Source: an uncultured Thermoleophilia bacterium (GTDB lineage: Bacteria; Actinomycetota; Thermoleophilia; RBG-16-64-13). Taken from it: a stretch of DNA of 64,000 nucleotides. The stretch spans positions 39,358-103,357 of the forward strand of contig CAVYVU010000013.1 of NCBI GenBank assembly GCA_963772095.1, read 5' to 3'. Positions 4,401-64,000 of this stretch are shown one piece after another; position 1 is the stretch's first letter, and each line of letters begins with the position of its first letter. Both the position numbers and the translations under genes were made by a program. The notes under the pieces were generated by a model. It saw only the letters and a program-made list of their open reading frames with translations. It was not told the DNA's origin and ran no database searches.

Positions 4401-5598
4401 GCCGAGATCTACGCGCGCACCCCTCGGACCGGCATCTTCTACACCCTCGGCATCACCGAACACACCACTGGTACGGCCAACGTCATGAACCTGGCCAATC
4501 TGGCTATGGTCACCGGCCACGTCGGTAAGGCGCATTCCGGCGTCAACCCGCTCCGCGGTCAGAACAACGTCCAGGGAGCCTGTGATATGGGCGCCTTGCC
4601 GAACGTGTTGTCCGACTATCGGTCGGTGTCAGACGCCCAGACCAGGGAGACTTTCGAGCAGAGATGGGGGGTGAAGCTAGACGACAAGCCTGGGCTGCGC
4701 ATCCCGGAGATGTTCGACGCGATCATCAGCGGCGATCTCAAAGCCATGTACGTCATGGGCGAAGATCCGGTACTCACCGATGCCGATGCCAACCATGTCC
4801 GCAAGGCTATCGCGGGCCTCGAATTCCTGGTGGTCCAGGACATCTTCTTAACGGAGACGGCCAAATACGCGGATGTGGTGCTGCCGGCCGCCTGCTACGC
4901 GGAAAAAGACGGCACCTTCACCAACACCGAGCGCCGCGTGCAGCGGGTGCGCAAGGCGGTGGAACCTCCTGGCCAGGCGCGTGCCGATTGGGAGATCATT
5001 TGCGACCTGTCACGGCGCATGGGGTATGAGATGAACTATGACTCCCCGGCGGAGATCTTCGAGGAGATCAGGAGCCTCACGCCGTCCTATGCCGGGATGA
5101 CCTACGGCCGGGTGGACGCCTGCGGACTCCAATGGCCGTGTCCCGACATCGATCATCCGGGCACGCCCTATCTGCATGAAGCTACTTTTCCCCGGGGCAG
5201 GGGCAGATTGATCGGCATCGAGTCACGAGGCACCCGACGAACTCACAAACGAGGAGTATCCGATTCTTCTCACGACCGGGCGGATGCTCTATCAGTACAA
5301 CGTCTCCACCAGACGATCCGGGACCCTGGATTCGCTGGCGCCGCATGAACTAGCCGAGATCAATCCGGCGGACGCCGCCGCCATCGGAGTGTCCGAGGGA
5401 GAGAAGATGCGGGTCAGCTCGCGGCGCGGCTCGGTCGTGACCCGGGTGACGGTCACCGAACGCGTGCCCCCGGGGATTCTCTTCATGACCTTCCACTTCT
5501 TGGAAACAGCGGTGAACGAGCTGACCAATTCCGCCTACGACCCGATTTCCAATACGGCGGAATACAAGGTCTGCGCGGTCAGGATCGAAAAGGTTTAG
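1425..5598 (+). CDS. fdhF: Selenocysteine-containing formate dehydrogenase alpha subunit fused to 2Fe-2S and GltD-like NADPH/FAD modules (~1390 aa; one apparent +1 frameshift near 5223)
   Basis: In-frame TGA at 3975-3977 in NLDHCART-U-HAPTVAGL, matching the FdhF Sec site; the frame continues into ORF 3990..5348; removing one base near 5223 joins to YPILLTTGR...EYKVCAVRIEKV; Fer2, GltD (GSGPSG, GGGFTAMD, YRR), 2x4Fe-4S, CPLCGTGC and molybdopterin motifs present. Confidence 0.92.
3978..4010 (+). promoter_or_regulatory. Bacterial SECIS element
   Basis: Perfect hairpin GTGGCC-GGTCT-GGCCAC at 3990-4006, 12 nt after the UGA; the GGUCU apical sequence matches the E. coli fdhF SECIS as I recall it. 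Confidence 0.85.
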
Positions 5599-5626
5599 GA
5601 CCACAGGGCACGTCACCGAGTACGAC

Positions 5627-5685
5627 TTCCGCCGGCTTGGGTCCACCTTCCCCCATATGGAGAAGGTGGACCGCCGCGGCGGAGG
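5627..5685. terminator. Long hairpin between convergent fdh and cocE genes
   Basis: Perfect 11-bp arms GGTCCACCTTC (5640-5650) / GAAGGTGGACC (5662-5672) plus an outer imperfect stem; no clear U-tract. Confidence 0.55.
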
Positions 5686-5849
5686 TCAATTCCTCCGGAA
5701 AGAAGTGGCCGACGCGCTCGACCACCTTTTGGCCTTCTTGCTTCAACCTCCGAAGCTGCGCCGGCCGTTCGAACGCTGGCCGAGCGAACCCCTTTGATGG
5801 CCTCTTCTAAACCGACTTGCTCCTTGAGCCTGGTGTCGCTCAGGTGGGG

Positions 5850-7596
5850 CTACCTGGGTATAACCGGCAGGATGACGTGCGACGCATGGTCCTTGTCGTG
5901 GTAGTAGGTGTCGCGTGCCGACCTTGATGCCGTAGTAGTGACCGCCGAAGTCGAGCGCCGGCGAATCGCCGCAGGCCACGTCGATGCGGATGCGGTGCCC
6001 CTTCTTGAACACGTTGCACGTCGGCCAGACCTCGATCTCGTACTTGTAGATCTTGCCCGGCTCGATGGGCTTGGGCTCGTCGTGCAGGTAGTACGGCCGG
6101 TACGGGCTTGGAGAGCTCCTCGCTCTTGGTGCAGGCGTGCGAGGCCTTGAGCCAACCCCGGGTGAGGATCAGGCCTTTGGACGGCATGCCCGGCACCTGC
6201 TCGGAGTCGGGCGCTTGATCGACCAGGCGGCAGAAGAAGTCGGTGTTCTGTCTGGTCGGAGGAGGCGTAGAGCACCAGCACGATGTTGCCCGAGACCTCC
6301 AGATCCTCTTCCAGCGGCGCGCTCGTGAAGGTGGGGATGCGGCGCTGCCCGTAGACGATGCCGTCGTCGATGACGGCCGTGCCGCCGCCGGAGAAGTGGG
6401 TCCAGTCCTGGTCGGGATAGGAGTAGGTGAAGGAGCTGTCTGGCCTCCGTCGGGCGCTTCCCAGGAGAGCTTGCCGTCGTTCAGCGACTCCACCGCGCCG
6501 CTCGGGCCGGGCCTGCAAGTAGAGCTTGCGGTAGTCGGTGCGGGCAAGCGGCCACTCGTTCTCCGGCCGGTACTCGTCGGCTCCGCGCACGAAGATGGTG
6601 ACCGGCGGTTCGTCCATGAAGCCGGTGTCGTTGCCCTTGAGCCAGTGGTCGTACCAGCGCAGCATGAGCAGCTGCATCTCGGGCGAGTTGTAGATGGCCA
6701 TCTCGTCGCCGTCCATGACGCCGTGGATGAGCATCATCTTCTTGGGCGTCTCGATCTCCTCGTAGCCGCGCACCACGCCGCGCAGGTGCAGGCCCACCTT
6801 GTGCAGGGCGCCCACCACGAACACCGGGCACCTGGATCTTCTTGAAGTCAGGGTTGCGCATCTTCCAGAAGTCGTCGTAGGTGGGATGGTTGATGCTCGT
6901 TCCAGACCATGTCCCACTTGCCCATCTCCGGGTTCGGCGCGGCGGCGTGCCGAAGCGGTCGGGGATGCCCAGGCGGTAGTGGCCGCGGATCTCCCACATG
7001 TGCCAGGCGGTCGGGAAGCCCACCGCCATGATGCCGCCGTGGAAGGCGATGTCGCGGTACAGATCGGCGCCGGCGTCCCAGGGCAGGATGCAGGTGAGGT
7101 GCGGCGGCTGCTGGACGGCGGTGAACCACTGGCTCCAGGCCAGCAGCGACTCGCCCAGCATGCCCACCTTGCCGTCGCACCAGTCCTGGACGGCGATCCA
7201 CTCGGTCATGTCGTAGAGGTCGTTCTGCATCTCCTGGCCGAACAGGTCCCACTGGCCGGTGGGCGAATGGCCGGTGCCGCGCGAGTCGGTGTGCACGAAG
7301 ACGTAGCCGCGGGAGACGAAGTAGTCGATGTCGTTGGTCTCCCGCATGTGGAAGATGGGGAGCAGCGGCAGGTGGTCCAGGTCTTTCTGGTAGGAGTCGG
7401 CCGCGTGGATGGCGGGGAACTTGCCCGGAGCATCCGGGCGGTAGATGTTGGCGGCGATCAGCGTGCCGTCGCGCATGGTGATCATGACGTCCCGCTCCAC
7501 CTTCATCGCGTACTGCGGCTTGCTCAGCTTGTCGGCCGGGAAGTCCTTGGGCAGCATGGTCCGCATGATCTCGGGCTTCAGGGTCTTTGAGTACAT
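5850..7596 (-). CDS. CocE/NonD family hydrolase (peptidase S15 fold), split by several frameshifts
   Basis: MRDGTLIAANIYRP, DSRGTGHS, nucleophile elbow GMLGESLLA, RWYDHWLKG, GHRIRIDV and SHVILPVIP are distributed over ORFs 6481..7596, 5850..6917, 5840..6547 and 5743..6012. Confidence 0.85.
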
Positions 7597-48722: not shown

Positions 48723-49300
48723 GGTCTCTGGTTCCTCCTTTGCTTTCTGAATTCAGACCAGAAACTCGAGCAGATTATCTGCTCAGCTCATATCCTGCAG
48801 CCACAGGAATCTTACCTCGACCTCATTTCCCAAGCGATAGTTCGGTCGGTGTCACAGATTCTTAGCCGCAGCACAAATCCTTGGGAATCTTACTTCGGGA
48901 CCGGAGCCACCGTCGCCCACCTGCAGGAGCCGCCTTCTGAAAGTGACGCCCAACTACCGGAGCAATAGTGCCCAGTATCTAGCGGGACCACACAGGCGGG
49001 ACCACGAACATCCGTTGATATTCCCTTGACTTTCCGCGCGATTTCGGCCTTCAAGTGTGCTTGCCCGATCCACACAGAGGAAAGCCCCGCAAACGGGGCT
49101 TCCGGAAATGAGGCGTGATGGTCTCGCACTATCGACCATCGGATTAGAAAGCGGGAACTACGGTCCCTCGAGCGTGCGGCCTCATAGCATGAGCTCGGGT
49201 CGATGCTCCGCCAAGAGGAGCAAAGACTCGCCACAATCACTGAACTAGTGTTGGCCGACAGATACAATGACAGTCAAAACGACCGCGCTCGTCGCGGTCC

Positions 49301-50856
49301 TTGTTAGATCGGAACAACAGCCGGTTGCAGGACATTTCCACGACCAAGGTACAGAGCCCGTCGGAGCTACAGCGGCGGCGGTGGCGCGTGCTCGTCATCG
49401 CTTCGGTGGGCGTGTTCATGGCCACCCTCGATTCGAGCATCGTGGCCGTGGCCTTGCCGGTCATAGGTCCCCATCTGCGCCTCACCTACAGCGATGCCCT
49501 GTGGGTTCAGGCGGCCTACATTCTAGTTGTCACCGTTCTCGTCATCCCCGTGGGGCGCTTGGCCGACATGCGGGGCCCCTTGCGCCTCTACACTCTTGGG
49601 GTCCTCCTTTTCGGCCTTTTCTCGGTGGTGGCGGCGCTCTCCTCTGACGGCCTCTTTCTCGTTGTGGCCAGGGTCTTTCAAGGGGTGGGTGGCGCGTTGC
49701 TCGCCGCCACGAGTGCGGCCATCGTGACCGCGGCGTTCCCGCCGGAAGAGCGGGGCCGGGCGCTCGGCCTCAACTTCATGGTCGCCTACCTCGGCCTCAC
49801 TCTGGGCCCACCCTTGGGCGGCCTCATTGTCACCCATCTCGGCTGGCGCTGGATATTCCTTGTTAATGCCCCGATCGCGGTCGCTATCCTCGTTGGGGGC
49901 TGGGATCTCCTCGGCGCCGAGCGACGGGACCGAGCGGCCGAGCGCGAGCGAAGAGGCATTCCCGTGGAGCGGTGGCCACATCGACACTCTGGGCGCGGCT
50001 CTCTTGGGGATGATGCTGGCGACCTTGTTTGTGCCCTTGATCTTCTCCCCGCTGTGGGGGTGGGCGAACGGGCGCACGATCGGTCTCCTGGCCGCGGCGG
50101 TCGTCTTGGCTGGAGTGTTCGTTCTCGTTGAGGGCCGGGTGAGAGACCCCGTCCTTGACCTTAGCCTCTTCCGGCGCAATCGCGTGTTTGCCGGAGCCAA
50201 CGCCGCTTCCCTTCTCTATTTTGCGGCTACCTATGGGGTAACCATCTTCACGGCGGTGTTCTTGGAAGTAGTCCAAGGGCGCTCAGCCCAGCGGGCTGGA
50301 CTTATCCTGCTGACTCAGCCGGCTATCATGACGGCCTTTGCTCCGTTCACCGGTCGGCTCTCGGACCGAGTCGGCTCGCACGGTCTAGCCGCCGCGGGGA
50401 TGATCGTCATGGCGGCAGGAATGGGGCAGTTGGCCCTCGTCTCTTCCTCGACCTCCGTCTGGCGGGTCGCTGGCCGCGCTGGCTACCTTGGGTCTGGGGA
50501 TGGCCTTCTTCGCCGCTCCCAATGTCTCCGCCGTCATGGGCTCGGTTGACCGGTCTCAGTTGGGCGTGGCTTCGGGGGTTCGCGCCACCATGAACTTCTG
50601 TGGGCAAGGGCTATCCATAGCCCTGCTCGGCGCCATTGCCGCCTCCAAGTTGGGCCCGGCGGGCGGACGCGTCATCTTGCTGGGCGAGAGCGCAGGCCTC
50701 ACCAACGCCCAGGCCTTCGCCGCCGGCTACCGGGAGGCGATGCTGGCGGGGGCCGGGCTGGCCCTCGCCGGTGCCTTGGCTTCACTCGTACGGGAGAAAA
50801 GACCGAAAAAAGTGGCGGCACTGGGAGCCTCAGGCCATCCCGCCGCCCTAGACTAA
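49301..50856 (+). CDS. DHA2 (EmrB/QacA) family MFS transporter, two frameshifts
   Basis: MATLDSSIVAVALP, GRLAD, FPPEERGRALG, WRWIFLVNAP, PVLDLSLFRRNR, GRLSDR; pieces in ORFs 49301..50131, 49827..50549 and 50488..50856. Confidence 0.88.
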
Positions 50857-50991
50857 GTAGCATAGCTCTCCATGCGGTGTCATCGGGTAATGGTGATCAG
50901 TTCGTTTGGTTTCGTATCCGCCTACGATAGTTGCCGCAAGGTCACGGGTGGCGTACGCTGTCCTGGCAACGCGTTGCCAACGCCTCAAAGA

Positions 50992-51062
50992 GCGGCACAA
51001 CGGTTTTCGAGTTCTAGTGTGGGGGTCCAGGGCATTCCGAGGTGGTCCAGAAGACCGGCTAG
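50992..51062 (-). repeat. Diverged att-like repeat (tRNA-Ser CGA anticodon core plus island arm), copy of 63872..63942
   Basis: Ungapped alignment at offset 12880; 50 of 64 identities for 50999-51062 versus 63879-63942 by manual count, including the identical core AACGGTTTTCGA. Confidence 0.8.
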
Positions 51063-51549
51063 TAGATCGGGAATCCGACAACGACAATCCGTCTACGTCC
51101 GGCAACCGAAGGTCTCTCCTCCCTAGTCCGTTTGCCGAAGGAGGGCACCAACCCTCGTCCACTGGTTCCTCACCCCGGCGTGGATCGTCGGCGTCGCGTG
51201 GCTACCCCGCGCGAGGACTCGTCCCTCACGCCAGGCTCCTCGAGAATCGTGCCAGGGGGCTGCCCTGGAGACGAACCTGCGGCTAGGGCGCGACCTTGCC
51301 ACCGCCAGTTGGGCCTGCGCCGCCGTAGCTGCAGGAATCTCCTGCCACGATGACTGTCCAGGCTCTCTTCACGATTTCTTCTGACTCCGGTCGGTTGCCA
51401 ACACTCGAGAGCAACTGCCACAAGCTGATATCGACACAAGGCGACTCGACATTCGGACTACCAACCCGCAGGTCGGGTGTTCGCCAGATCTTCCGTGTAA
51501 CTACGCGTGCAAGCGACACTTGCGGCCAGCGGCCGGGAGCCGGCCGGCC

Positions 51550-51822
51550 TTAGCTCACCATATCCTGAGCCTTTCCCTCACAGACGTTGCGGTTGACCCA
51601 TTCCACTTGCCACTGGCTGCGCCGCGCCCCCGGGCCACGATCGCGGCAGATGCCCGCTTCCGCATCAACACAGGTACCGGGGCCAGTCCGGCGAGCGTGG
51701 CTTATGGCCGATCCCAACTCGTAGTACCAGCCGATGTTGTCCCGCTCGCCTTCGGCGTCGCCTGGGTCTATCAGCCGCCAGACGACATAGCGCACTTCCC
51801 GATGGGGTGATGAACCGTACAA
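51550..51822 (-). CDS. Hypothetical protein
   Basis: 90-aa ORF with TTG start after GGGAGAGAG; no recognisable motif. Confidence 0.3.
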   Translation of the reverse strand: MYGSSPHREVRYVVWRLIDPGDAEGERDNIGWYYELGSAISHARRTGPGTCVDAEAGICRDRGPGARRSQWQVEWVNRNVCEGKAQDMVS

Positions 51823-51998
51823 CTCTCTCCCTCATTCACCACCAGGAGACGGTCGGCGTCGTGGGCGCGCTCTCAACCGCATCGTTCCAGCGTGTTCTCC
51901 TTTAACTCTCGGCTCTTTCCATCCTGGAGGAAGAAGACGAGGTACCTATCCCTAAGGACCTTCGCCACGTATCCAAGTGATCCAGGTGGGCGGCCGCC

Positions 51999-54900
51999 TC
52001 AGCGCCACCCGGCGAAGGCGTTCTTTGCCACCAGTGTGAGGCGCGCTCTGCGCCGCTCCCCGACCGCGCCCAGCGTTATCAGGGCGCCGCCCACGATGGC
52101 CACGACCGCGACCACGCTGGGGATGGCCGAGAGATGAGACGAGGTCAGCCAGAAGGCCGCCAGCACGACTCCACCCAGCCCGCAGCCAAAGTAGAGGCGA
52201 ACGCGGAGTCCGACGCCCGATCCGACGATGGCGGCCGCAAGGCAGATAAGCCATATGGCGTGGCTTGTGCTCGAGACGCTGAGTCCCGAAGCCATCATGA
52301 GCAGCGCCGGGCCACCCAACCCGACGATCAGGGCAACGATGTCGATCGCCATCGCGACGTGACGGTATCTCTTCCTGTGCGACAGCCGCCAGGCGACCAC
52401 AGCGCACCAGACGGCCACCACCGTGAAGTAGGCCTCCGGCACGCCGACATCCGCCGCTCGCAGGAACATGAGCAGACCCGCCAGCAAGACGACGGGACCG
52501 GTGGCCAGACCCCACTTGGTGTGCGCCGAGAGCGACCACCCGGCGCAGTACGCCGCCAGGGCGCACAGGAGCACCGCGAGGCTCCAGTCGCCGCCGGAAA
52601 GCCAGGCTGGAGGCGCCGATTCGAACCCTGCGACGGCGGTCGCAACCAGCACGCTCGCCAGGGCGAGCGCCCCGGCCAGGGCGAGCGACCACGTGGCGCC
52701 CGAGCGTCGGCTGTGGCCGGCCACGGCGGACTACCGCTGGGGCGAGCATGGCGGCCGCGGCGACGATCGCGACGGCCGTGCCCGCCCACGCGCTGGCGCC
52801 GGCCCATGACTCCAGGCTGCAGACGGCGGCGAAGGCGACGAAGGCGGAGGGACCGGCGAGCACCGGCAGGCCGAGCAGCGCCGGTCCTGCGAGAGCGGCA
52901 GCCAGCGCCGCGAGCGCCAGCGTCGCCGACCAGGGCGCAGAGAACGCGCCGATGACGCCGGCCGCGGCTGCGACGGCGGCCCCCAGCGACCACCACAGGC
53001 GCCACTCCACTTTGCGGCGCAGGGCAAGCGGAGCGAGGGCCAGGACGGCGCCGGCGACGGCCGCCGCCAGCGCACCGGCCGCCTGACTCGAAGCGCTCCA
53101 GACGAACAGGCCGGCCGCGGCCGCGAGTGCGGCGGAGGCGGCCGGCAGGTAGTGCGGCCGGCCAAAACGAGCGGTCTCCGCGCACCACGCCAGCCCGGCC
53201 ATCGCCAGCACGGCGCCCGACGCGGGGCCGGGCGCGACGTGGCGCGCTGAGGGCGACGACCAGCACCAGCGCGGCGAGGAAGCCCGACGTGGCGACCCAC
53301 ATGACCTCGACGACCGGTTCGGGACAGCCGAGCAGGCGGCGGACCGGCCGCCGCAGCGTGCGACCAGATGAGACCGGCGACGAAGATCGCGGCCGCGATC
53401 CAGGCGAGATGGGTCGTCCGGATGCACCCAGCGCTCGATGACGCTGGCAAGGTGGAGGGAGAGCGCGTAGGCGACGATGGCGGGGACCGATATCGCGTGC
53501 CAGCACCGATGCGCCCGGCTCCTGCCGAACGCGGCGGCGGCCTTCCACATGCCAGCGGGCCGCCGCCGCGATCAGCCACACGACCAGCGCCAGGCCGCAA
53601 AGGACAGACAGGCTCACCGGACGCTCCAGGTTCCGCCCAGGACAACTCCACGGCAGGCACTGCGCCAGCCGCCGCTCCGGCCATGAGCAGCCAGGCCTCG
53701 GCACTGAAGACGCGGCGCAGGTCGTGCGCTCCCCTCCAGCGCGACTCCGGGCCGATGGCCGTCCGCACCCAGAGGCTCACGAACAGGCAGCAAAGGCCAA
53801 GGAGCAGATCCGTGCCGAGCACCACGGCAGCCTTGTTCCAGCCGCTCGCTCCGAAGGCGTGCACGATGACCACGGGCAGTTCGACTGCCAGCAGCGCACC
53901 GCCGGCCAGCACCCGAGCGTGGCCGCCGCGCCACCAGGCGAAGGCAAGGATGGGAAGGGCAGAGCCAAGCCCCGCGGCGGCCGTCCAATCGGGTGCATCT
54001 CGCCCCACGGCGACTAGGGCCCAGACGAGCAGCGGCACAAGGACGAAGGCGGCCGTCTCGAGGGCGAGCCTGCCGCGGATGCGGGCCCACATCTCGAAGA
54101 CGAACGAACCCACTACGGCCACGGTCCAGGCCAGTCCGAGCTGTATCAGCTCGGTGTGGTGACCGATCGGAAAGCAGGGCGGTGACGACAGCGAGCGCGG
54201 CGCAGGCGGCACCGGCGTCGGCCGGCCAGTTCGCCCACTCAGATGGCGAACGGGGTCGCTCGGCGAGGTGGGCGGCGGCGGCCGCGACGGCCAGGACGAG
54301 CAGGCCCGCCGTCGCGAGGGCAGGTCTCTGGGCCAGCGTTGCGGCGGCAACCAGACCTGCGAGCCAGAGAGGGAGCCGTCCACCAGGTCCGCGATCGTGC
54401 CTCACCACGGCGCAGCGCAGCCGGCAGCGGAAGCAGGACGAGCGCGGCGATGGCGGTCGCAAGACCGGCCGCCGCCCGGCCGCCGATCGCCCACGCCGCC
54501 AGGTAGATCGTCACGGAGGAGGCAATGGATGCGGCGGCCACGAAGACGCGCTCACGGAAGCGCCACGCCTCGAGACCCCACAAGGCCGCCGCCAGGGCAG
54601 CCAGCAGCACGTATCCCACGCCTGGGGCGGCTGAGCCGACGAGCGCGGGAGCGATGGCGAAGACGACGGAGCCGATGCTGGAGAGACCGAACATCCAGGC
54701 AGCCACCCGCGAGGACATGCGCGAGCCGACGCATGGCGAGCGTGCGGGAGTGGGACCACGCAGCCGCGAGGCCAAGCATCACGAACGAGTACCACACGTG
54801 GTCCGCGCCCGGCGCGATCCAGTGCACGGCCAGCGCGGCGGCGAACTGCGAGTAGGCGTAGCCGGCCAGACCCGTAGCGGTCAGTAGGACCACGATCGGC

Positions 54901-56589
54901 TTCGCCGACGGCTACGGCGGCCGACCGCTCGACCCTGCTGCGCACGGCCGTCGAGACCAGCCAGGCCGCCGCGGCCTCGGCCGCCAGCAGTGTGAGGGCC
55001 CCGCCGGACGGCAGTTCGCCGGCCATGAGGGGCTCGGCCACGCCCAGGGCCACGACCTGCAGCACCGATGCGCCGAAGAGGACCAGCCAGCCGCCGACGT
55101 GCATCACCCGGCATGTATTCCGCATGCCCCTCTCGAAACGGCGCAGGGCCATCCGCGGCAGCAGAGAGCCGGCCACCACAGCGAGCGTTCCTAGCGCCAG
55201 CCACGACGCGATGGCGCCGATCCAGGGGCCGGCGCCGCCGTAGCCCAGTAGCCCCGGCATGGCCGGCGCGGCCAGCAGCGTGACCAGCCCGACGACGGCA
55301 CGAAGAGTGCCCCCGCGCCATGCGCTCAGGAACAGGCAGAGCGGCGCCGGCGACGACCATCAGCACGATGGCCGGCCAGACGGGCCCCGTCGCCGGCAGA
55401 GACAGGAAGGCGACCGGCACCGGCAGGAGTGCCACCACCGACGCCTCCCGTACCCAGGCGCCGTCGACGACCTTCTGCAGTTCGAGGGCTGCGGTGGCGG
55501 TGACGGCGATCACCAGCGCCGCGATGACGGCGCTCCAGCCCGGGTCCACGAGGCCGCCGACGATGGCCGACCACCGCGGCGCCGGCGGCCAGCCCCGGAC
55601 CCGCGAGGCCGAGGAGCTGACCGATCGACTCGAGCCGCGCCGCGCCGCACACGAGGCGCGGCCAGCGTCCAAATGAGGCCCACGGTCGTCAGGATGGCGG
55701 CCCGGGCACCGAGCGGCCAGGAGAGTGCGGTGCCGAGCAACCACCACCACGCGATCTGGGCGATGGCCCCGCTGACGGCGAAGAGCTTCACGCGCAGCCA
55801 CGCGCCCATCCCCCAGTGCACGGCCGACCCGACGGCGAACAAGAGCGCCCACCACCACAGGCTGTGCAGACCAGCGGCGGAGAGCAGCAGCCACCCGTCG
55901 ACCAGGACGAGAGCGGCGCCGACGGCGAGCAGGCTGATGCCGATAACGGCCAAGCGGCGGCGCAGCCACAGGCCGCCGCCGTAGAAGGCCGCCGTCACCG
56001 CTACGAGGATGCCCAGCCGGATACCCGCCGCCAGGCTCGGCCAGGCGTAGATGGCAAAGCCGGCGGCGGCCGCGACGACCAGCAAGGCTCCGGCGAGGGC
56101 GACCCAGACGGTCCACGGCACGCTCCGCGCCGCCACGGCGATGCGCGACGGCGGACGAGGTGTCTTCGGCGGCGGGGCAGGCTGCGGTGCCGGGCGTCAG
56201 GCGTGGGAGGCGGAGGCTCGAACTTCGACCGCGTCATCGTAGGCAGGTGTGGGTCGCGCGGCCGTCTCGTCTGAGGCAGCCGCAGGTGTCGCTTCCGCTT
56301 TCTCGGAAGGCTCCAGGCCGAGCTCGCGCGCCCGATCCAGATACCGCTGAGTCAGGAGGAGGTACGCGGAACCCGGTAGCTCTCCCCTCGCCTGCGCCTG
56401 CTCCAGCGCTTCGAGGAGGTAGTCGATCTTGGCGAGCTCGTCGGTCTCGACGGCTTCGCCTTCAGAGCGGATCCTGGCGATCAGCTCCGCGCGAGCCTCT
56501 TTGCGGTTCAGCCAGCAGGCGGCACCACATTCGGGGCAACGCACGTACCGTCCCTGGACTTCGGCGCCGCACACTGGGCAGTCGATCAT
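51999..56589 (-). CDS. Very large polytopic membrane protein (zinc-ribbon N-terminus, DUF2157-like region, SCO7613-like C-terminus), heavily frameshifted
   Basis: MIDCPVCG...CPECG; VWVALAGALLVVAAAAGFAIYAW; C-terminal VPEAYFT...GGALITLGAVGERRR; hydrophobic Ala/Leu/Gly-rich segments in shifting frames across 4.6 kb. Confidence 0.7.
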
Positions 56590-56647
56590 GGAACCCCCCA
56601 CCTGGGTGAATTGGTCGTTCGGGTAGCAGCCGACCAGGGACGCGGCC

Positions 56648-58530
56648 TCACGGGGTCGATGGTGCCGGGCGCCCTTCCTTCCCCAGGAAGTTCCACAGCG
56701 CCTGCGCGGCCTCGGCTCGGGTCGCCGGCCTCCAGGGATCCCACTTACCGCCGAACCCGTAACCGACCAGCCCGTCGACCAGTCCGTTCAACTCAGCCCG
56801 GAGCATGAAGGGGGCGTGCGTAGGGTCGAAGGCACCGAGAGCACCCGAGTAGCCTTGGGGATAGCCGGTCATTGGAGGCGTCCCGAGGACCCCGGGCTTC
56901 ACCTTGTCGATCGCGCGCACAAGCAAGGTCATGAGCTGCGCTCGAGTTAGGGTCGCGTCGGGGGAAAAGGTGCGGGGTCCGGTACCCAGCGCTATCCCGC
57001 GCTCCGCCAGCGCAGCGACGTAGGCGCCGGGGAAGAGACCCGGGGTCACATCGTCAAAGGGAGCGACGGCGGAGGGATCCACCGGAATGTCGAGGGCGAG
57101 CGCCAGCATCTTGGCGAACTGTGCACGGGTCAGGGTGGCGTCGGGGCGGAAGAGGGCACCGGCAGCGGACGAATACCCGCCCACTATCTCCCGCTCTTTC
57201 AAACCCTGGATGGCGGTACGGTAGGGGTGAGTCCCCGGCACGTCCAGGAACGCGGGGGTCTTGGGAGCGGTCGGGCTGGCCAGGATGAGTTGCTGCGGAT
57301 CGTCCCAGCTATAGGGCCAGGAGTTGCCGGTGGTGAAGGCGACGTAGGTGCCGTCTGTACCGTAGCTGTCGTTGTAGCCGGCCAGTGTGTCCAGCCGGGT
57401 GACGATGTCACGGGCGCGATCGTACACGAAGAGGTAGTTCCAGTTGGTGCCGGCGTAGCGCCCGCGGAACTGGCCATGGAAGAGGAGGAGATCACCGCGA
57501 AGGACGAGGCCACCCACGTCATACCCGGTGGTGAGAATCCGCTTGGTCTGCCCGGTGGCGAGATCGCTGAGCGCCACGTAGGTCGATCCGTCGGCATAGC
57601 CTGCCCAGGCGACGGAGCTCCCATCTGCTACCAGGGACGCCCGGGCGACGACCCCTCGGGCACCGCATCCAGCGGGCGCAACTCTCCCGACTCGAGATCG
57701 TAGCTGACGAAGTGCTGCACGCCGCCCTCGCTGCTCCACTGACGCCACGCCAGCAGCATGTCTCCCGCAAGAGCGGCAAGGTTGTAGTTGCGCAGGGAGG
57801 GGATTTCCCGGGTCTCGCCGGTGGTGGCGGAATAGAGCCAGACTTCGAGATCCGGCCCCCCGGGCACGTGGGCAGGCTCGTTCGTCCAGACGACCCTTTG
57901 GGCATCGGCCACATAGTCGCCGCTGGGACCACCCGTTCCTGGCTCCCCGGCAGCTAGGGTGACCGTCTGGTTCTTGGCGATGTCGTGAAGGAGAAGGGAC
58001 ATGTCGCCGGCCATCGGGCCTTCGATGCCCACCCTGGTCGCGGACAGCCAGGTGACCATGTTGCCTTGCACGCTCAGCCGGTAGTTGAACCTGGTCTCGG
58101 CGTCGTTCGTCAGGCGCCTCGTCTCCCCGGTAGAGATGGTGTACAAGAAGACGTCGCCCCCCTCGCGTCCGGAGGAGCTGGGACTGGCGGGGCCGAGGTA
58201 GACGACATGGTCGCCGTCGATCTCAGGTGAGCTACCGTCGGGCGCGATCACCTGTCTCTGCCCGGTCGCCACGTCATAGGAGCACTATCGGAGTAGCGGC
58301 AGGAGGCCTCCCGTCCACCCACACCACGCTGCCCGTCGTCCATCCGCGCGTGCACACCCTGGCCCACGTCTTCGGAGAGCGACGTCGTCTGCCAGCCATC
58401 GACTGGTGGAGCCGCGAGCGCGACGGGGGCGAGGAGAAGAAGCGCGAGGACGGCGGTAAGGAGCGTGAGTAGAACTAGGGAACACAACTTGGACAGGTGG
58501 TGCTGCTTTGGTGGGCGGCGGTGCTCTCAT
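56648..58530 (-). CDS. Secreted beta-propeller-like repeat protein with three C-terminal SLH domains, frameshifted
   Basis: Signal peptide LLLLAPVALA; TolB-like repeats (VFLYTISTGETRRLT, VWLYSATTGETREI); SLH motifs FRPDATLTRAQF, FSPDATLTRAQL, ATRAEAA. Confidence 0.75.
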
Positions 58531-58680
58531 CGTCCCTTCCCCCTCTTGGTGAGTAGAAAGCCCACGCTGCGCTGCATCCGTAGCGCCGCTAACTCTACTA
58601 TGACACTTCATCAACATGTCCGGCAGAGGCGAGATTGTGCCCTCACCTGACAACCAGCCTGGGCTCGTCGAGATCGTGCC

Positions 58681-59883
58681 CTACTTCTTCCTCTCGTACT
58701 TGAGCCAGACCCAGACGGGGCCGTCATTGCTGGCGGCCCTGAACTGGACGGCGATGGCTTTGTTCTGGTCGATGCCCTTGATGGCGTAGATGACGTACTG
58801 CGAGTCTGGGATGGGCACACCCGTCGCGTCTGCCGCGTGCCCGGACCCAACAACGGACAAGTCGGCAGGCGTGTTGCTCGCTACCTTGACCACCTGGAAG
58901 CCGCCGGTATACATCCGCCCTTTGTAGAGGATGTCGGCGGGGATCATCACCCCGATTCGTGTGTCAAACTGATTTAGCTGGGAGGTTGTGGTGGTCTCGG
59001 CACTGGTGGTTGTTGTGCCTAGCAGGCTCGTGACGGGAATGACGAAATAGGCGAAAGCGGTGGACTCATAAGGGGACGTGGTCGCCGTACTGATACCGTA
59101 CGTCGAGGAGGTGTTGGCGCTCGAAGGTGTTGTGGTTGGTGCTACCGGCACTCCAGCGACCGCGCTTAGACCCAGTTGCTGGGAGTCCAGCTGGCGGCTC
59201 CGAGTACTGCCGGTCAGCGGCTGAAAGGCCGAGCCATCCCAGGAGTAGGCCGTACCTTCTGGGGGCAAGGCGCCTTTGTACGCATCCAGGAACATGAGTA
59301 CCAGCCCATAGATCCCCCCTGCGCCCAGCCCAGGGAGCTTGCCAGTTATGTTCTCTGCGCCCACCGCATCAATAGCCGCCAAGACGGAGTACATCGAGTA
59401 ATCGGTGATGCTCTTTGGCTCTCCGCTCGTAATCGCGGTGGTGACGAAGGCACGAACTACCTGGCCAGCTTGCCCGCCATAGCCGTCCCAGGAGACTCTT
59501 ACCTCTCTGCTGTCGGCCGTGACCGCGATGAGGAACAGGTTGACCAGAGACCCGGAAGGCGAGTAGTCCAGTAGGAGGTCCCACGCCCGAGCGCCCTCCG
59601 CGTCAAAACTGCAGGCCTTGGCGACCTGAAGCCAAGCTTCATGCAGGTTGATCTGGTCCGCCGGTCCGAGATCAAGGGCGATCTTCGCAGAGTTCTTGAT
59701 GGAGGAAGCGACAGTGGTTGAGGTCGCTGTAGAGGAGAATGAACTCACCGGCGTGGGAACGGAGGTGATCGAAGCTTCGGTCGAAGCGCTACAGGCTGCT
59801 GCGGCCAAAGTCAGCGCGATACAAAGGAAAGCCATGGCCGCAACGAGTAGTTGCCGACCGGCAGGAGACCGTGCTGTTCTCAT
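58681..59883 (-). CDS. Lipoprotein with Ser/Thr-rich linkers
   Basis: Signal peptide and lipobox LAAAAC; two globular regions separated by Thr-rich tracts. Confidence 0.75.
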   Translation of the reverse strand: MRTARSPAGRQLLVAAMAFLCIALTLAAAACSASTEASITSVPTPVSSFSSTATSTTVASSIKNSAKIALDLGPADQINLHEAWLQVAKACSFDAEGARAWDLLLDYSPSGSLVNLFLIAVTADSREVRVSWDGYGGQAGQVVRAFVTTAITSGEPKSITDYSMYSVLAAIDAVGAENITGKLPGLGAGGIYGLVLMFLDAYKGALPPEGTAYSWDGSAFQPLTGSTRSRQLDSQQLGLSAVAGVPVAPTTTPSSANTSSTYGISTATTSPYESTAFAYFVIPVTSLLGTTTTSAETTTTSQLNQFDTRIGVMIPADILYKGRMYTGGFQVVKVASNTPADLSVVGSGHAADATGVPIPDSQYVIYAIKGIDQNKAIAVQFRAASNDGPVWVWLKYERKK

Positions 59884-59955
59884 CTCGCCCCCTGGCTACC
59901 AGCCTATACAGTGGGTCCGCCCGTTTGACACGTCGGTCAGTTCGACTACCCAGAT

Positions 59956-60126
59956 CTACAGGAACCTGCTCTCAAGCTCCGCGAAGAATGCGACTGGAAG
60001 ACGCTCGAAGTCCATCTCTGTAATCCGAATAGGGTCGCCAATGCTGAGCTTGAGGACCGACTGCTCAGCGACGGTGACTTTCGCGCCGGCATCCTCTTCG
60101 AGCGAGATGGGCTCGTCTACAATCAC
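59956..60126 (-). pseudogene. Probable 3' fragment of a small hypothetical protein
   Basis: Protein-like frame VIVDEPISLEEDAG...LKLSIGDPIRITEMDFERLPVAFFAELESRFL*, with an in-frame stop upstream and no good SD. Confidence 0.35.
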
Positions 60127-60214
60127 ACTGGCATTGCGCGCAGGTTGAGGTGATGAGCGCAGATATGTGGCCGCCGCTCACGGAAGGTCCGCCCGGATCT
60201 TCCCATCGAGAGAC

Positions 60215-60592
60215 CTACTTCTTCCCTTTTGACTGGTTATAGCTTATGGCAGCACGAACGAGAGTCTTTAGCGAACCTTCGTCTATGTGATCACCTTCAG
60301 AGACATCAATAGCCCGCCACTTGTTGCCCGCCAGTCCGGCATTGAAGAGTTTGTCAGGATCACTGAGTGCCGCACCGTCATTGAAGACGAGCTTCACTCG
60401 ATTCTTGAAGATATTTCCAACACAGATAATCCCGTTGAGTGACCAGACTGGTGACCCCATCCATTTCCACTCCTCAATGATCTCAGGATCAACCTCAAGG
60501 ATGGTCTTGCGGAGCTTCGCTAGCGTGGTACCTCGCCAATCCTGATTCTGCGCGATCAAATTGTCAATTTCTTCACTAGGATTCATGACCAT
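60215..60592 (-). CDS. DUF1801 (YdhG-like) domain protein
   Basis: DWRGTTLAKLRKTI..VDPEIIEEWKW, KLVFNDGAALSDPDKLFNAGL.GNKWRAID; visibly lower GC. Confidence 0.88.
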   Translation of the reverse strand: MVMNPSEEIDNLIAQNQDWRGTTLAKLRKTILEVDPEIIEEWKWMGSPVWSLNGIICVGNIFKNRVKLVFNDGAALSDPDKLFNAGLAGNKWRAIDVSEGDHIDEGSLKTLVRAAISYNQSKGKK

Positions 60593-60984
60593 CCCCCTTT
60601 GTTTTCTGCACAATCATCCAGTGGTTGCTGTCTGGATCATCGACACTAAACCATTTGACGCCCGACCCGGGACCGTATAGGTCATCGGCAATCTGGCTAG
60701 CTCCGTCGTCCTGCAACTGGTTATGAGCGGTTCAATATCTGGTGTTGAAAGATACAGCTTCAGTGGAAACCTTGCCCTACCTCTTCCGCACTCGCGAATC
60801 TGCTTTCAAGTTTAACGCTCACCTTATTCGTGGCCTCGCATACTTGGCTAGGCAAAGCGATCCGATAAGAAAAACAAAGGCGGAAAAAGACGGCTGCCCG
60901 ATGGGCGACGCGGGTGCGCAGCACCCACGAGCTGGTACTGCAGCGGACGAGATTGCCTTTCGACTGAACCGTAAAGGAGGGACC

Positions 60985-61743
60985 ATGCGGAAGCCTGGTT
61001 CGCAGGGGAAGCAGCGGAGACCCGGGTGGTGGAATCGGCAAGAGGCGGTCACCAAACTCGTGATCGCAGGTCTCTCAGCCGTCATCGTTCTTCTCATAGT
61101 AGCTGTAGCTCTTGTCGCCACTCTTGGCAACAGCGGAGAGAGCTCGGTCGCGAACGCTTCCTCCACTACGCTCGGGAGCGTGGCTGAGACGAGCACCACT
61201 GCAACTACGACAGCGGCCGAGTCTAGTACTACAGCAACCACTACGGCGGCCGGATCGAGCACAACGGGAACCACTACGGCATCCGGGTCCAGCACCACGA
61301 CCACCACTGGGGCTCCTCAGTCCAGCACCACCACCGCCACTGCGACCTCAGATACTGCCGACCATGCCGCAGACTATCGAGCTCAGCATCCGTCGACGGA
61401 GTCCTTCACGAATTCCAACTGGGCGACTCTCGATCAGGCACCTGCGAGCCACCTGGGAGCAGCGGTCGACGTAATCGGACGGCTAACGGGTGGACCCACA
61501 ATAGACTCGGATACGGGATATCTGACGTGGCACCTGTCGATCCCGGCCGCTGGGGGTACGGAGCTGCAGGCTCTCTGCAGGACTAACGTCAACCTCGACC
61601 GGAATCTGCTGTCCGCAGGCGGCTGGGTGGAAGTTCGCGGCGTCGCCGTTGGGGCGCAGGCAGCTGACGCGAGTAACGGCGCCGCTATCTATGTCGAAAC
61701 CGTCCTGCCGGCCACGCAGCCTGCTGCCACGCCGACAACCTAA
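60985..61743 (+). CDS. Membrane-anchored extracellular protein with Ser/Thr repeat linker
   Basis: SD AAGGAGG; one TM segment; 11-aa repeats SSTTATTTAAG; C-terminal beta-rich domain. Confidence 0.75.
   Translation: MRKPGSQGKQRRPGWWNRQEAVTKLVIAGLSAVIVLLIVAVALVATLGNSGESSVANASSTTLGSVAETSTTATTTAAESSTTATTTAAGSSTTGTTTASGSSTTTTTGAPQSSTTTATATSDTADHAADYRAQHPSTESFTNSNWATLDQAPASHLGAAVDVIGRLTGGPTIDSDTGYLTWHLSIPAAGGTELQALCRTNVNLDRNLLSAGGWVEVRGVAVGAQAADASNGAAIYVETVLPATQPAATPTT
61189..61311 (+). repeat. 33-bp (11-codon) tandem coding repeat
   Basis: TSTTATTTAAE / SSTTATTTAAG / SSTTGTTTASG / SSTTTTTG. Confidence 0.75.
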
Positions 61744-61891
61744 CCGGGGAAAGCCAATCGGATGCCCATCAACCTCTCTATGAAGGGCGTGCCCGATACG
61801 GGCTAACACAACGGCTCCCCATCTCGACTTCTACATGTGTCCGGCTGTCTACTCCCAGCACCCGCTTTACACTCTGGCTCCGGTTCCTTCT

Positions 61892-62083
61892 TTACGGCTT
61901 ACCGGACCTCTTGCCCAAGCCGATCACGAAGAGCGGCAGCCCTACCACAACCAGTACGATGCCGATAATCAGGGTTGCCTGCGGTGATAGGTGGCCGTGG
62001 CTCGTAAGCGCGTAATGTCCAAGCGCGATGAGTCCGCTAACTATGAAGATGATGCCTAAACGGAGATAGTTCCTCCACGACAT
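61892..62083 (-). CDS. Small two-TM membrane protein
   Basis: 63 aa with two hydrophobic stretches flanked by basic ends. Confidence 0.6.
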   Translation of the reverse strand: MSWRNYLRLGIIFIVSGLIALGHYALTSHGHLSPQATLIIGIVLVVVGLPLFVIGLGKRSGKP

Positions 62084-62428
62084 TCTTCGCTATGCCTCCA
62101 ATAAGCTCGCCCAGAGTCGGAACTGCAGCCAGTGTCGCACACGTGCCGGAGCGGCGTCCGAAAGTCTAAAGCACCTACCGGTGGCCAATGTGTCAAGTAT
62201 GTGCCGGGACTGCAGTTCATTATCAACCTCTACCTGAGGAAGAGGGGGAGCCTTCCCGGTAACGCCCACACACGCCTGACTTCGCAGACCCGTTGTGGTC
62301 CTGGGAGAGCGGGGTCCGAGTAGAGCAGTCTCCGCGGCACCAGACTCTCGGTCCAACAAGGCACTAGACACCACCGCACTTTTGTCCGATTGTGGGACCA
62401 GTGAAACTCAGTTCTGCGGGAGGTTCTC

Positions 62429-63199
62429 ATGGGAACAATCGCGAGACTGTGGACGAAGGCAAAGGCGATTGGTGGCGCGGTTTCTGCCGAAACGGAGAAG
62501 GGAATCGCGGCAGGGTTGACGGGGGCAGAGGCACTTGGTGGCGCGGTCGGTGCCGAGGCGGAGAAGGGAATCTCGACCGGGTGGACGGGGCTAAAGGCGC
62601 TTCCCGCCAAGGCGTGGGCGGCTTCCGGGCTTACGAAACTCGCGGTGGGTATCGGGGCTGTGGTCGTCATAGGACTCATCGCGGCTGCTTCAGCCGGGGT
62701 TTTTGGGGGTTCTGCACCGAGCGGACAAACAGACAAAGCAGCGCTGTTGCAGTCTCAGACCACGACCATCGCGACCCAGCAGACAAAAACGGCCAGCGCG
62801 TCCACGAGCTCGGACACCTGGCTCCTGTGGGACTGGTCGTCCCGGACAGCAAAACCGCCCTACAGCTGGAACCCCACCTGGCACGTCGTACTCAATGGCA
62901 GCCTTGAGTCAGGGACCGTCACCATACCGGAGGACAAGACCGTCACTGCCACTTACACGGCCAACGGCGACAAACTCACCATCGACATCACCCGCATACT
63001 TGGGCCAGAAAACCCTCAGCCACAGAAGTTCCACTACGAGTTCACGGGATACCCGAGCGACTACTGGACGGGGACCATCCTCGTCGGTCGGATCGGTAAT
63101 GACACCAGCGTTACCGCATGGTCGGAGCCAAGAGACGCACGAGCGACGCGGGGCTTGAACACGCCACCCACTGGTACTGGTACGCCGCCTTCCTCATAA
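62429..63199 (+). CDS. Membrane-anchored protein with an N-terminal 22-aa tandem repeat
   Basis: KAIGGAVSAETEKGIAAGLTGA / EALGGAVGAEAEKGISTGWTGL (66-bp duplication), TM segment, Thr linker, beta-rich C-terminal domain. Confidence 0.7.
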   Translation: MGTIARLWTKAKAIGGAVSAETEKGIAAGLTGAEALGGAVGAEAEKGISTGWTGLKALPAKAWAASGLTKLAVGIGAVVVIGLIAAASAGVFGGSAPSGQTDKAALLQSQTTTIATQQTKTASASTSSDTWLLWDWSSRTAKPPYSWNPTWHVVLNGSLESGTVTIPEDKTVTATYTANGDKLTIDITRILGPENPQPQKFHYEFTGYPSDYWTGTILVGRIGNDTSVTAWSEPRDARATRGLNTPPTGTGTPPSS

Positions 63200-63785
63200 C
63201 AAGCGGCTTCGGCTGAGGAGCGCTGCCTTAGTCTCCGGAGCGGATGAGCGCACACCGTCCTATTCCTTCCCGGAAGAGCTTGCAAATAGGCGGGGGAATT
63301 AGAACCAGATTCTAACCCCCGCTCGCCGAAGGCGCATGACGACCACGCGTCTGCGCGGCGTGTAGCTACATCTTTGTGAACGCACGCAACGCGATGTAGA
63401 TGGCGACGACTCCCAGCACGATTATGCTTCCCTTGAAACCCGGGGTGCTGTCGCGCATTCCCAGCCATCGCCACTTCCATATCGCGGCGCTCTGCCTCTG
63501 ACGGAGTTGCTCCCGATGTTTGTGCACGTGACGACTCCTTCCCAACCGATCCAGCTCACCCGTCGGCATCTGGCGCGAATGACTTTAGGTTCGGGGGCGA
63601 GTCGGGCCCCAATTCCTTCTGCGATGCGGCAGCCGGACGCCCAGGAATGCGACATCGCCGCTGAGGTGGTGATGTCGACAGAGTTGCCCACGGGTCTGTC
63701 ATTCGGTGTCTTCTCGTCCGTCTCGATCCATTGGCTGGTGGCGAGTTTGCCCCCGAATTGCCCCCGAAGTCGCCTGAAAGACGCC

Positions 63786-63811
63786 AAAACCCGGCCTCCC
63801 GGGCCAGGTTT
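63786..63811 (-). terminator. Intrinsic terminator downstream of the tRNA fragment
   Basis: Minus strand AAACCUGGCC-CGGGA-GGCCGGG-UUUU. Confidence 0.7.
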
Positions 63812-63834
63812 CTCAACACGTTTTCCCTGTAAAT

Positions 63835-63890
63835 AGGCGGAGGGGGGATTCGAACCCCCTGTACCACTTGCGCCGCATAACGGTTTTCGA
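63835..63890 (-). tRNA. 3' half of tRNA-Ser(CGA), non-functional att remnant
   Basis: Minus strand TCGAAAACCGT, long variable arm with GCAA loop, T-arm GGGGG-TTCGAAT-CCCCC, shortened acceptor CTCC-G-CC; D-arm and 5' acceptor strand absent. Confidence 0.75.
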
Positions 63891-64000
63891 CTTCTGATCT
63901 GGGAGTCTGACGCGATCCGAGGATGTCCAGAAGATCGGCTAGGTCCGGCAACGCAAGGTCAGTCCGGCCTAGTCCGTCTGCATATGGACGCGTTGTGCCA

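Follow-up and report, generated by a model that had tools for sequence, protein, structure and literature searches.

The stretch of DNA considered here (the window, 64,000 nucleotides (nt) long) comes from an uncultured bacterium of the class Thermoleophilia (Actinomycetota). It corresponds to C13:39358-103357 of a 2.73-Mb, 28-contig metagenome-assembled genome (MAG) with an estimated completeness of 66%; C-numbers denote contigs and G-numbers the genomes of relatives. In its right-hand part lie two remnants of a tRNA-Ser(CGA) gene, J1 (50983-51010) and J2 (63699-63890, the tRNA part being 63836-63890), and between them a 12.9-kb stretch, segment A (51011-63699). The next unit to the right, J3, is found at window coordinates 70085-70275, on the 7.3 kb by which C13 extends past the right edge of the window; the contig ends at window coordinate 71280, 1 kb after J3. 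An earlier account made from the letters alone (the sequence-only reading) had proposed an older, integrase-less island between two diverged attachment-site repeats, followed on the right by a younger, related one. The features of segment A and its ends are collected in Table 1.

Table 1. Positions, in window coordinates, of segment A, its genes and the sites at its ends
Feature	Position	Strand	Remarks
J1, truncated tRNA-Ser(CGA) remnant	50983-51010	-	anticodon loop to end of variable arm (tRNA positions about 34-58); T arm and acceptor missing
Putative distal (P-type) arm of segment A, arm family 2	51011-51101	-	TCCGACAAC / TCCGGCAAC and CTAGTCCGT motifs in common with the arm at 63891-63976
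Body of segment A	51102-63698		cargo only, without recombinase or transfer genes
Giant membrane-protein gene	51999-56787	-	zinc-ribbon N-terminus, many transmembrane segments, SCO7613-like C-terminus; at least six frames here
Cell-wall-anchored protein with beta-propeller repeats and SLH domains	56648-58284	-	two overlapping frames; Pfam SLH E = 1.4e-19; the beta-propeller is a hint
400-amino-acid open reading frame (ORF), no assigned family	58681-59883	-	C-terminal third recurs in other arrays as a repeated gene piece
DUF1801 protein gene	60215-60613	-	Pfam E = 5.5e-18
Low-complexity Thr/Pro/Ala-rich ORF	60742-61743	+	33-nt tandem repeats
J2 module (putative proximal, P'-type arm)	63699-63835	-	spacer, terminator hairpin 63786-63808, two direct TTCGGGGGCAA repeats 63747-63768, GACGGACGAGAAGAC tail
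J2, tRNA-Ser(CGA) 3' fragment	63836-63890	-	anticodon loop to acceptor end, 55 nt; foreign-type variable arm GCGGCGCAAGTGGT; 3-nt deletion in acceptor
Putative distal (P-type) arm of next segment to the right, arm family 2	63891-63976	-	77% identical to 51011-51062

The tRNA-Ser(CGA) remnants and their arms

The J2 fragment, TCGAAAACCGTTATGCGGCGCAAGTGGTACAGGGGGTTCGAATCCCCCCTCCGCC on the minus strand, can be aligned to all three tRNA-Ser(CGA) genes of the assembly (C26:14755, C28:8624c and C28:222930); the alignment begins one base ahead of the anticodon (TCGAAAACCG...) and runs to the acceptor end. This bears out the earlier claim of a 3' fragment of this gene that starts in the anticodon loop. 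The similarity to the tRNA loci extends about 135 nt further downstream, to about 63699, and against C28:8489-8680 amounts to 78.9% over 194 nt (BLAST, E = 6.5e-36; nhmmer, E = 2e-49). Its different variable arm and the deletion in its acceptor strand indicate that the fragment is a decayed relic. J1 is shorter. It consists of the exact 17-mer TCGAAAACCGTTGTGCC and then [G]CTCTTTGAGG as in the resident tRNAs, matching them at 27 of 28 positions with one indel; its 12-nt core lies at 50999-51010 and the tRNA similarity to the left of the core reaches 50983. The variable arm of J1 is the host's own sequence, which the sequence-only reading did not notice, so that the left repeat is a truncated host-type fragment and not simply a diverged one. 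Directly beside J1, where the tRNA similarity stops, is a perfect 14-bp palindrome, GGCAACGCGTTGCC, at 50965-50978.

Core and adjoining arm are present twice, as had been proposed. The stretch 50992-51062 aligns to 63872-63942 without gaps (55/71 identities), with a local alignment score of 64 compared with 17.1 +/- 2.4 (maximum 28) for 300 shuffles, 19 standard deviations above them, and a weaker, gapped similarity reaches 51101 and 63976. The segment to the right of J2 therefore has a distal arm related to that of segment A (77% identical), and the tandem architecture of the earlier proposal stands. Both arms were also said to contain TCCG(G/A)CAAC motifs. Three of the five matches to TCCGRCAAC in the window do fall inside the two arms (51074, 51098 and 63944), but with 1.5 matches expected in 64 kb the enrichment, though suggestive, is weak. 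The arms were searched for in 61 genomes of the family. One match to the J1/J2 arm with three mismatches allowed was dismissed as chance, as it lay inside a radical-SAM coding sequence, and core plus arm gave no exact-pattern match in viral and metagenome contigs.

Neither a scan of the genome for PF00589 nor tblastn with an integrase of the family over C13:90-110 kb detected an integrase or a remnant of one in segment A, and its long ORFs match no recombinase, relaxase, replication, transfer, phage or mobility family in Pfam, PHROGs or NCBIfam. The description of the two repeats as attachment-site remnants of the anticodon-loop type bracketing a 12.9-kb segment without an integrase is thus upheld. 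The expectation for the right-hand side was not borne out. There, the sequence-only reading had expected a younger island with an integrase and an intact tRNA gene at its far end, but only further fragments of tRNA-Ser precede the end of the contig. One is a T-arm remnant, the tRNA-Ser-like GCAAACGGTACCGGGGTTCGAATCTCCCC, about 545 nt to the right of J2 (window coordinates 64435-64472, minus strand) and without a module; the other is J3, a full unit. The extra remnant suggests that the right-hand neighbour of segment A is itself subdivided. The genes in the intervals between these sites, none of which is a recombinase gene, encode a GcvT-like protein, a CAT-type acetyltransferase, an aminotransferase and small membrane proteins, and no integrase was found on C13. 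ARAGORN found no intact tRNA in the window, and the remainder of the contig has none either.

A repeated unit in this genome and its family

J1 and J2 are not the private pair for which they had been taken, but two of about 20 units in the genome and part of an array system that runs through the family. The unit of about 190 nt is made up of the tRNA 3' part, a spacer, a terminator hairpin, GAGTTCGGGGGCAATTCGGGGGCAAACTC with its two TTCGGGGGCAA repeats and the GACGGACGAGAAGAC tail. About 20-22 copies were recovered from this genome by BLAST and profile searches: six on C12, three on C13, three on C25 and four on C26, in addition to those at both ends of C28. All units of an array have the same orientation and are spaced at 0.6-13 kb; the units bound segments of 0.5-13 kb without an integrase, and in five cases a contig breaks within an array. 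Over 93 copies, tRNA-less ones included, conservation of the module is 80-90% per position, and the tRNA fragments have a sharp start at the anticodon loop, as seen in J1, J2, three copies on C12 and copies in 13 genomes. In scans of the units and of 46-64 kb with Rfam, at gathering and E-value thresholds, only tRNA-type matches were returned, and the module falls in no known RNA family. A conserved small ORF at the start of the module tail (ATGGAnCGAGAC...) was considered and rejected, since conservation does not extend to its ATG and in several copies the reading frames end after about 10 codons.

Intact tRNA-Ser(CGA) genes occur on other contigs, one at each end of C28 and one on C26, and each heads an array of the same kind; MBL-fold hydrolase, DUF4332 and tadA genes lie upstream of the tRNA. 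Two of the three (C26:14576-14919 and C28:222748-223092) share about 180 nt upstream and have divergent 5' halves, with an acceptor-stem mismatch, A4:C69, to the host-type 3' half. These two look like hybrids in which an element-borne 5' half has been joined to a host 3' half; one of the pair is located mid-array. The matches to PF00589 in the whole genome comprise two Xer-like genes on C15 and two C-terminal remnants (about 77 and 56 amino acids) inside the arrays of C25 and C26. These remnants (C25, L006 11587-11838; C26, L004 5461-5651; both minus strand) have the C-termini of tyrosine integrases (...HDLRH...LGH...Y...KVDAMLG); after each come a small ORF and a tRNA-like T arm that is degenerate and differs in specificity. 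C25 and C26 themselves are paralogous or strain copies, 93% identical. The single match to PF00239 in the genome, on C16, is outside the arrays. An ALIL pseudoknot, known as the frameshift element in transposases of the IS3 family, was found with 73 bits at C28:225963-226080, the right end of that contig, and points to an insertion sequence in or beside the array there.

A search for relatives with the tadA-like gene upstream of tRNA-Ser(CGA) returned mostly distant phyla, and the only useful close relatives among the results were two MAGs of uncultured Actinomycetota from the MFD project. Across the family, arrays are widespread. In G006, 13 units occupy 28 kb after an intact tRNA on a 3.56-Mb contig (C6), with intervals of one to four unrelated genes on both strands and a mean cassette size of about 2 kb; G002, of the same genus as the bacterium studied here, has seven units after the tRNA, G012 about 20 and G018 six, and G049 yields 36 matches. 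Several genera have a tRNA-Ser(CGA) without any module, and in genomes of other families of the class only the normal tRNA-Ser genes were found.

Segment A (51-63.7 kb) is absent from G001 and G002, both of the same genus, apart from short pieces in the tRNA-Ser array of G002, namely 390 bp from the start of the body of A and part of the 400-amino-acid ORF. The comparison with relatives invited by the sequence-only reading thus shows that the segment is not core genome. The giant membrane gene, likewise absent from the genus, is 83% identical over 4.6 kb to an intact ORF of 1549 amino acids in G006, which belongs to a different genus, whereas for a neighbouring MFS transporter gene identity inside the genus reaches only 78-80%. 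G002:C1 is collinear with C28:8.5-37 kb of the present genome, at 84-92% identity, up to about position 190 of the unit, and past that position the arrays of the two genomes contain partly the same cassettes in a different order. A flavodoxin-like cassette, comprising a module, a promoter-like TTGACA...GAATACT and the gene, is inside the tRNA-Ser array of the present genome (L002 (C28) 4900-5950); in G006 (C6:716947-718037) it is far from the array and adjoins a full tyrosine integrase and a primase-helicase gene.

The most informative relative is G072, which has a complete island of 18.9 kb with a tyrosine integrase and the same TCGAAAACCG core. Its integrase (377 amino acids, C2:185411-186544) matches PF00589 with E = 8.9e-23 and has an N-terminal SAM-like domain, and restriction-modification genes are also present. 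At the proximal end (C2:180236-180465) are the intact tRNA and the module; at the distal end are the P arm, the TCGAAAACCG core and a 56-nt tRNA fragment (C2:199124-199178) that starts from the anticodon loop. The module follows the intact tRNA at attL and is absent from the native flank beyond the distal fragment, so the module of the unit would be the P' arm of the element. That it might be native chromosomal DNA downstream of the tRNA was rejected for the same reason and because many genera have a bare tRNA. The proximal and distal variable arms of G072 differ in a compensatory manner (GCTCGCAAGAGT and GCTGGCAACAGC, respectively). The variable arms of J2 and J3 are likewise of foreign type with compensatory changes, that of J3 being the one in the native tRNA of genus g13. 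In G072, three copies on C12 and one on C16, TTCGGNGGC direct repeats are found in the P arm, about 100 nt from the core, as well as in the P' arm (arm family 1), a placement that would fit arm-type binding sites. The junction of this arm family with the core, AGAGCCC/TCGAAAACCGTT, was found in 13 of the 61 family genomes, and a control pattern gave zero matches.

Probable accretion downstream of the tRNA gene

In our view, 50983-63890 is probably one member, segment A, of a tandem stack of remains of integrative elements that was built downstream of tRNA-Ser(CGA) by repeated site-specific integration. An anticodon-loop tyrosine integrase would recombine attP (P arm, TCGAAAACCG core, P' arm) with the tRNA. 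The P' arm would bring a new tRNA 3' half and about 135 nt containing the terminator and the two TTCGGGGGCAA repeats, the displaced 3' half would remain at the far end of the element, and every newcomer would shift the older elements further from the tRNA. On this model, J2 would be A's own P' arm, 51011-51101 its P arm and J1 the rest of the host 3' half displaced by A. As the tRNA runs on the minus strand, the live gene should be somewhere to the right, with newer elements rightward; that it is not seen beside the stack in the window would be due to contig ends breaking the link. A host-type variable arm in J1 together with foreign-type arms in J2 and J3 is what one would expect were the outermost repeat the host copy that was displaced and those further in element-borne. 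Homologous recombination between units has had a part in reshuffling the stack as well, given that the breakpoints of homology fall at several places. Segment A would then be either a decayed island or a cis-mobilizable element (CIME) that can move only with an integrase in trans.

Several observations weigh against accretion. The arrays of G006 and G012 contain no match to PF00589, and the whole genome of G012 has only two. Homology between genomes breaks off where the tRNA part begins in some cases, and in others within the module (at about position 180-190) or where the module ends. Arm family 2 was found in no other of the 61 family genomes, and the P arms at J1 and J2 lack the TTCGGGGGCAA repeats that P' arms carry. 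J1 is without the T arm and acceptor expected of a displaced host 3' half, so that a later deletion has to be assumed. With neither an intact tRNA nor an integrase on C13, the proximal end of the stack is unseen; the DNA to the left of J1, a frameshifted MFS paralogue and then a tRNA-Lys fragment, is not clearly native; and, in a metagenome assembly that is 66% complete, misjoins at the repeated units may have occurred.

Several known systems come close. An anticodon-loop sublocation class of tRNA-targeting tyrosine integrases was reportedly described by Williams in 2002. Actinomycete elements of the pSAM2 and SLP1 type use a tyrosine recombinase and have an identity segment that runs from the anticodon loop through the tRNA 3' end and beyond. 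Recombinase type, actinomycete host and this layout of the identity segment are common to both, but the identity segment here is unusually long (about 190 nt), and neither segment A nor the G072 island yielded replication or FtsK-like transfer genes. Of the features of a tRNA-borne island, segment A has the distal tRNA 3' repeat from the anticodon loop and a patchy distribution; a proximal intact tRNA and an internal integrase were not found.

The comparison with CIMEs and the accretion arrays of the ICESt1/ICESt3 type, a concept used here as in PMC5704250 and PMC3146451, is closer. Segment A is flanked by att sites of the type of an integrase-bearing element, is without integrase, excisionase and transfer genes according to library scans of its long ORFs, and stands in tandem with a related element that shares the att site. 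Its TCGAAAACCG core and P' module match the integrase-bearing island of G072, and its P arm is of the other family, seen only here; no helper element with arm family 2 was found in the assembly. Segment A differs from known CIMEs in its site, the anticodon loop of tRNA-Ser(CGA), in its host among the uncultured Actinomycetota, in being a candidate for mobilization, and in the far greater length of the stack (about 20 units, and up to 36 matches in a relative). In Dehalococcoides, many tandem islands with strain-specific content lie within about 100 kb downstream of one small-RNA gene, ssrA, and are bounded by direct repeats of its 3' end; 15 of them are without an integration module and have been interpreted as possible CIMEs (PMC3146451). 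Tandem islands after one small-RNA gene, bounded by 3'-end repeats and in part integrase-less, are common to both cases. In the islands of Dehalococcoides, the recombinase is of the serine type (DsiB), the repeat is 20 bp long and the site in tmRNA is T-loop-like (PMC3146451), whereas the only recombinases linked to the arrays here are tyrosine integrases, the crossover is in the anticodon loop and the repeat consists of 55 nt of tRNA and a module of about 135 nt. No integration module with a large serine recombinase of the DsiB type was found, the sole PF00239 match on C16 not being in an array. In the tycheposon islands of Prochlorococcus, elements that integrate one after another at a single tRNA drive the earlier arrivals inward; partial tRNAs and pieces of integrase genes lie scattered through such islands, whose cargo consists of adaptive genes (bioRxiv 10.1101/2020.12.28.424599). 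The accretion and its debris are similar here, but host phylum and integrase lineage are different, most units bound very small segments without an integrase, and the present system is known from sequence alone.

Dehalococcoides and Prochlorococcus thus build flexible regions from att-bounded stacks at one tRNA or tmRNA gene. The architecture is already known from other bacteria; what is new is the lineage, a family of uncultured soil Actinomycetota that shares it on a large scale (10-36 units per genome). The attachment unit is well defined and easily searched, and an integrase-bearing reference island is at hand. The unit is a marker of the flexible region in these metagenome assemblies and accounts for the contig breaks there; it also flags the genes that lie between units, most of the right half of the window included, as cargo traded horizontally and not core metabolism.

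A bolder idea is that the tRNA-Ser(CGA) locus is a cassette-capture platform, in which a selected site of about 190 nt would allow integrase-less cassettes to be inserted, excised and traded across genera by integrases acting in trans from rare complete islands. This would be integron-like in function but built on a tRNA and lambda-type tyrosine integrases. We regard it as rather unlikely; if cassettes do move in trans, the arrays would offer a tractable natural system for the study of hitchhiking islands. Carried further, the arrays would be no graveyard of decayed islands at all but a dedicated platform, with the unit in the role of an integron attC and cassettes of 0.5-13 kb exchanged by a trans recombinase. 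The small size of the cassettes in G006 and the lack of an integrase in all 13 of that array would suit such a platform, as would a module whose conservation extends to tRNA-less copies, the recurrence of the same cassettes in differing order in genomes of one genus and outside the array, and breakpoints that cluster at unit edges and just past the second direct repeat. No recombinase gene is linked to the tRNA or arrays in the present genome, G006 or G012, however, and cassette genes are on both strands. The 7-nt inverted repeat around the direct repeats has mismatches without compensation, and a canonical island with its own integrase and the same core and module, that of G072, makes the unit an ordinary P' arm. 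A dedicated platform consequently seems distinctly unlikely. Short, gene-sized cassettes between repeated sequences associated with recombination and their shuffled order across genomes recall integrons, but true integron identity was rejected: no IntI adjoins the array (no PF00589 match in the arrays of this genome, G006 or G012), the repeat is derived from a tRNA, there is no imperfect palindrome of the attC type, only the 7-nt inverted repeat, and the genes are on both strands.

The units are 75-92% alike over about 190 nt, a length sufficient for homologous exchange, and this raises the question of whether site-specific integration is needed at all. Homologous recombination or duplication among dispersed copies of a conserved sequence downstream of the tRNA could also spread the units, and J1-J2 would then be a segmental duplication. 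Several breakpoints between genomes do fall inside the best-conserved stretch of the module, and C25 and C26 show that paralogous or strain copies exist. The abrupt beginning of the fragments at the anticodon loop, common to J1, J2, three copies on C12 and copies in 13 genomes, speaks against this explanation, as do the bare-tRNA genera and the module-free native flank of G072. The compensatory changes in variable arms, which match the tRNAs of other genera, are not predicted by duplication within a genome, and the similarity between J1 and J2 covers only about 70-110 nt and excludes the flanking genes. Homologous recombination and duplication are hence improbable as the main origin of the pair and of the arrays. 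That the assembler joined unrelated pieces at repeated units, or that the J1 match arose by chance, is very improbable in spite of the 28 contigs, the incompleteness, the five contig breaks within arrays and single-base indels of the consensus-error kind in many genes, for J1 and J2 are 12.9 kb apart in one contig with unique sequence between them, J1 combines an exact tRNA 17-mer with a 60-nt arm homologous to that of J2 at a score far above shuffles, and similar arrays are present on multi-megabase contigs in relatives, G006:C6 among them.

Cargo and flanks of segment A

The label of surface-protein island is only loosely apt for segment A, whose genes comprise those for a single SLH/beta-propeller protein, a giant polytopic membrane protein and a low-complexity protein besides DUF1801 and unknown genes; an ORF containing tandem repeats is also counted in the inventory. 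Compared with its intact counterpart in G006, the giant membrane gene has 13 single-base insertions and not one single-base deletion. One-sided indels of this kind, in a stretch of 73% G+C, suggest that the broken frames at 51999-56787 are errors of the assembly consensus rather than decay. The 400-amino-acid ORF has no match in Pfam, PHROG or NCBIfam; at the DNA level it is matched in the array of G002 and in G006. Look-ups of the exact proteins of two segment A genes led to no other contigs. The G+C content is uneven, 73% at 52-56 kb and 53% at 60-61 kb, and on account of this heterogeneity the body of segment A has probably arisen by the fusion of two or more older cassettes. Within it, a repeat at 61844-62196 is similar to the tail of the cassette that follows. 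A repeat of about 95 nt with three spaced ACCGGAGCC...TGTC(A/G)C submotifs occurs at 48897-48994 and 62119-62210 of the window, at C13:110456-110551 and at C26:12831-12927. It recurs in several array cassettes and in G006 and G018, and its layout is reminiscent of a cluster of iterons or operators.

To the left of J1, the MFS transporter gene (49261-50851) is split over three frames. A better conserved copy at C17:108587-110177, 77.6% identical, is syntenic with relatives of the same genus, which makes the gene in the window an extra paralogue. Further left, window positions 8-28 kb give only scattered matches of 66-83% within the genus. The single-copy gene C13:18609-19298 lies directly downstream of tRNA-Ser(CGA) in G009 and G020, two other genera, in matching orientation. 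Should this gene represent the ancestral flank, over 70 kb of C13, the whole window included, would be the product of accretion, but the gene could equally be cargo, and as a single anchor it was not relied on to place the distal end of the stack by synteny. Another tRNA has left its mark nearby. At 49078-49152 (minus strand) is a 3' fragment of tRNA-Lys(TTT) that starts at the anticodon loop and continues into the terminator hairpin of the resident tRNA-Lys (C1:136861), with an alignment score of 79 compared with 15 ± 2.4 for shuffles. The fragment abuts the PhzA/B-M24 island at 28-48.7 kb and may be the remnant of that island's attachment site.

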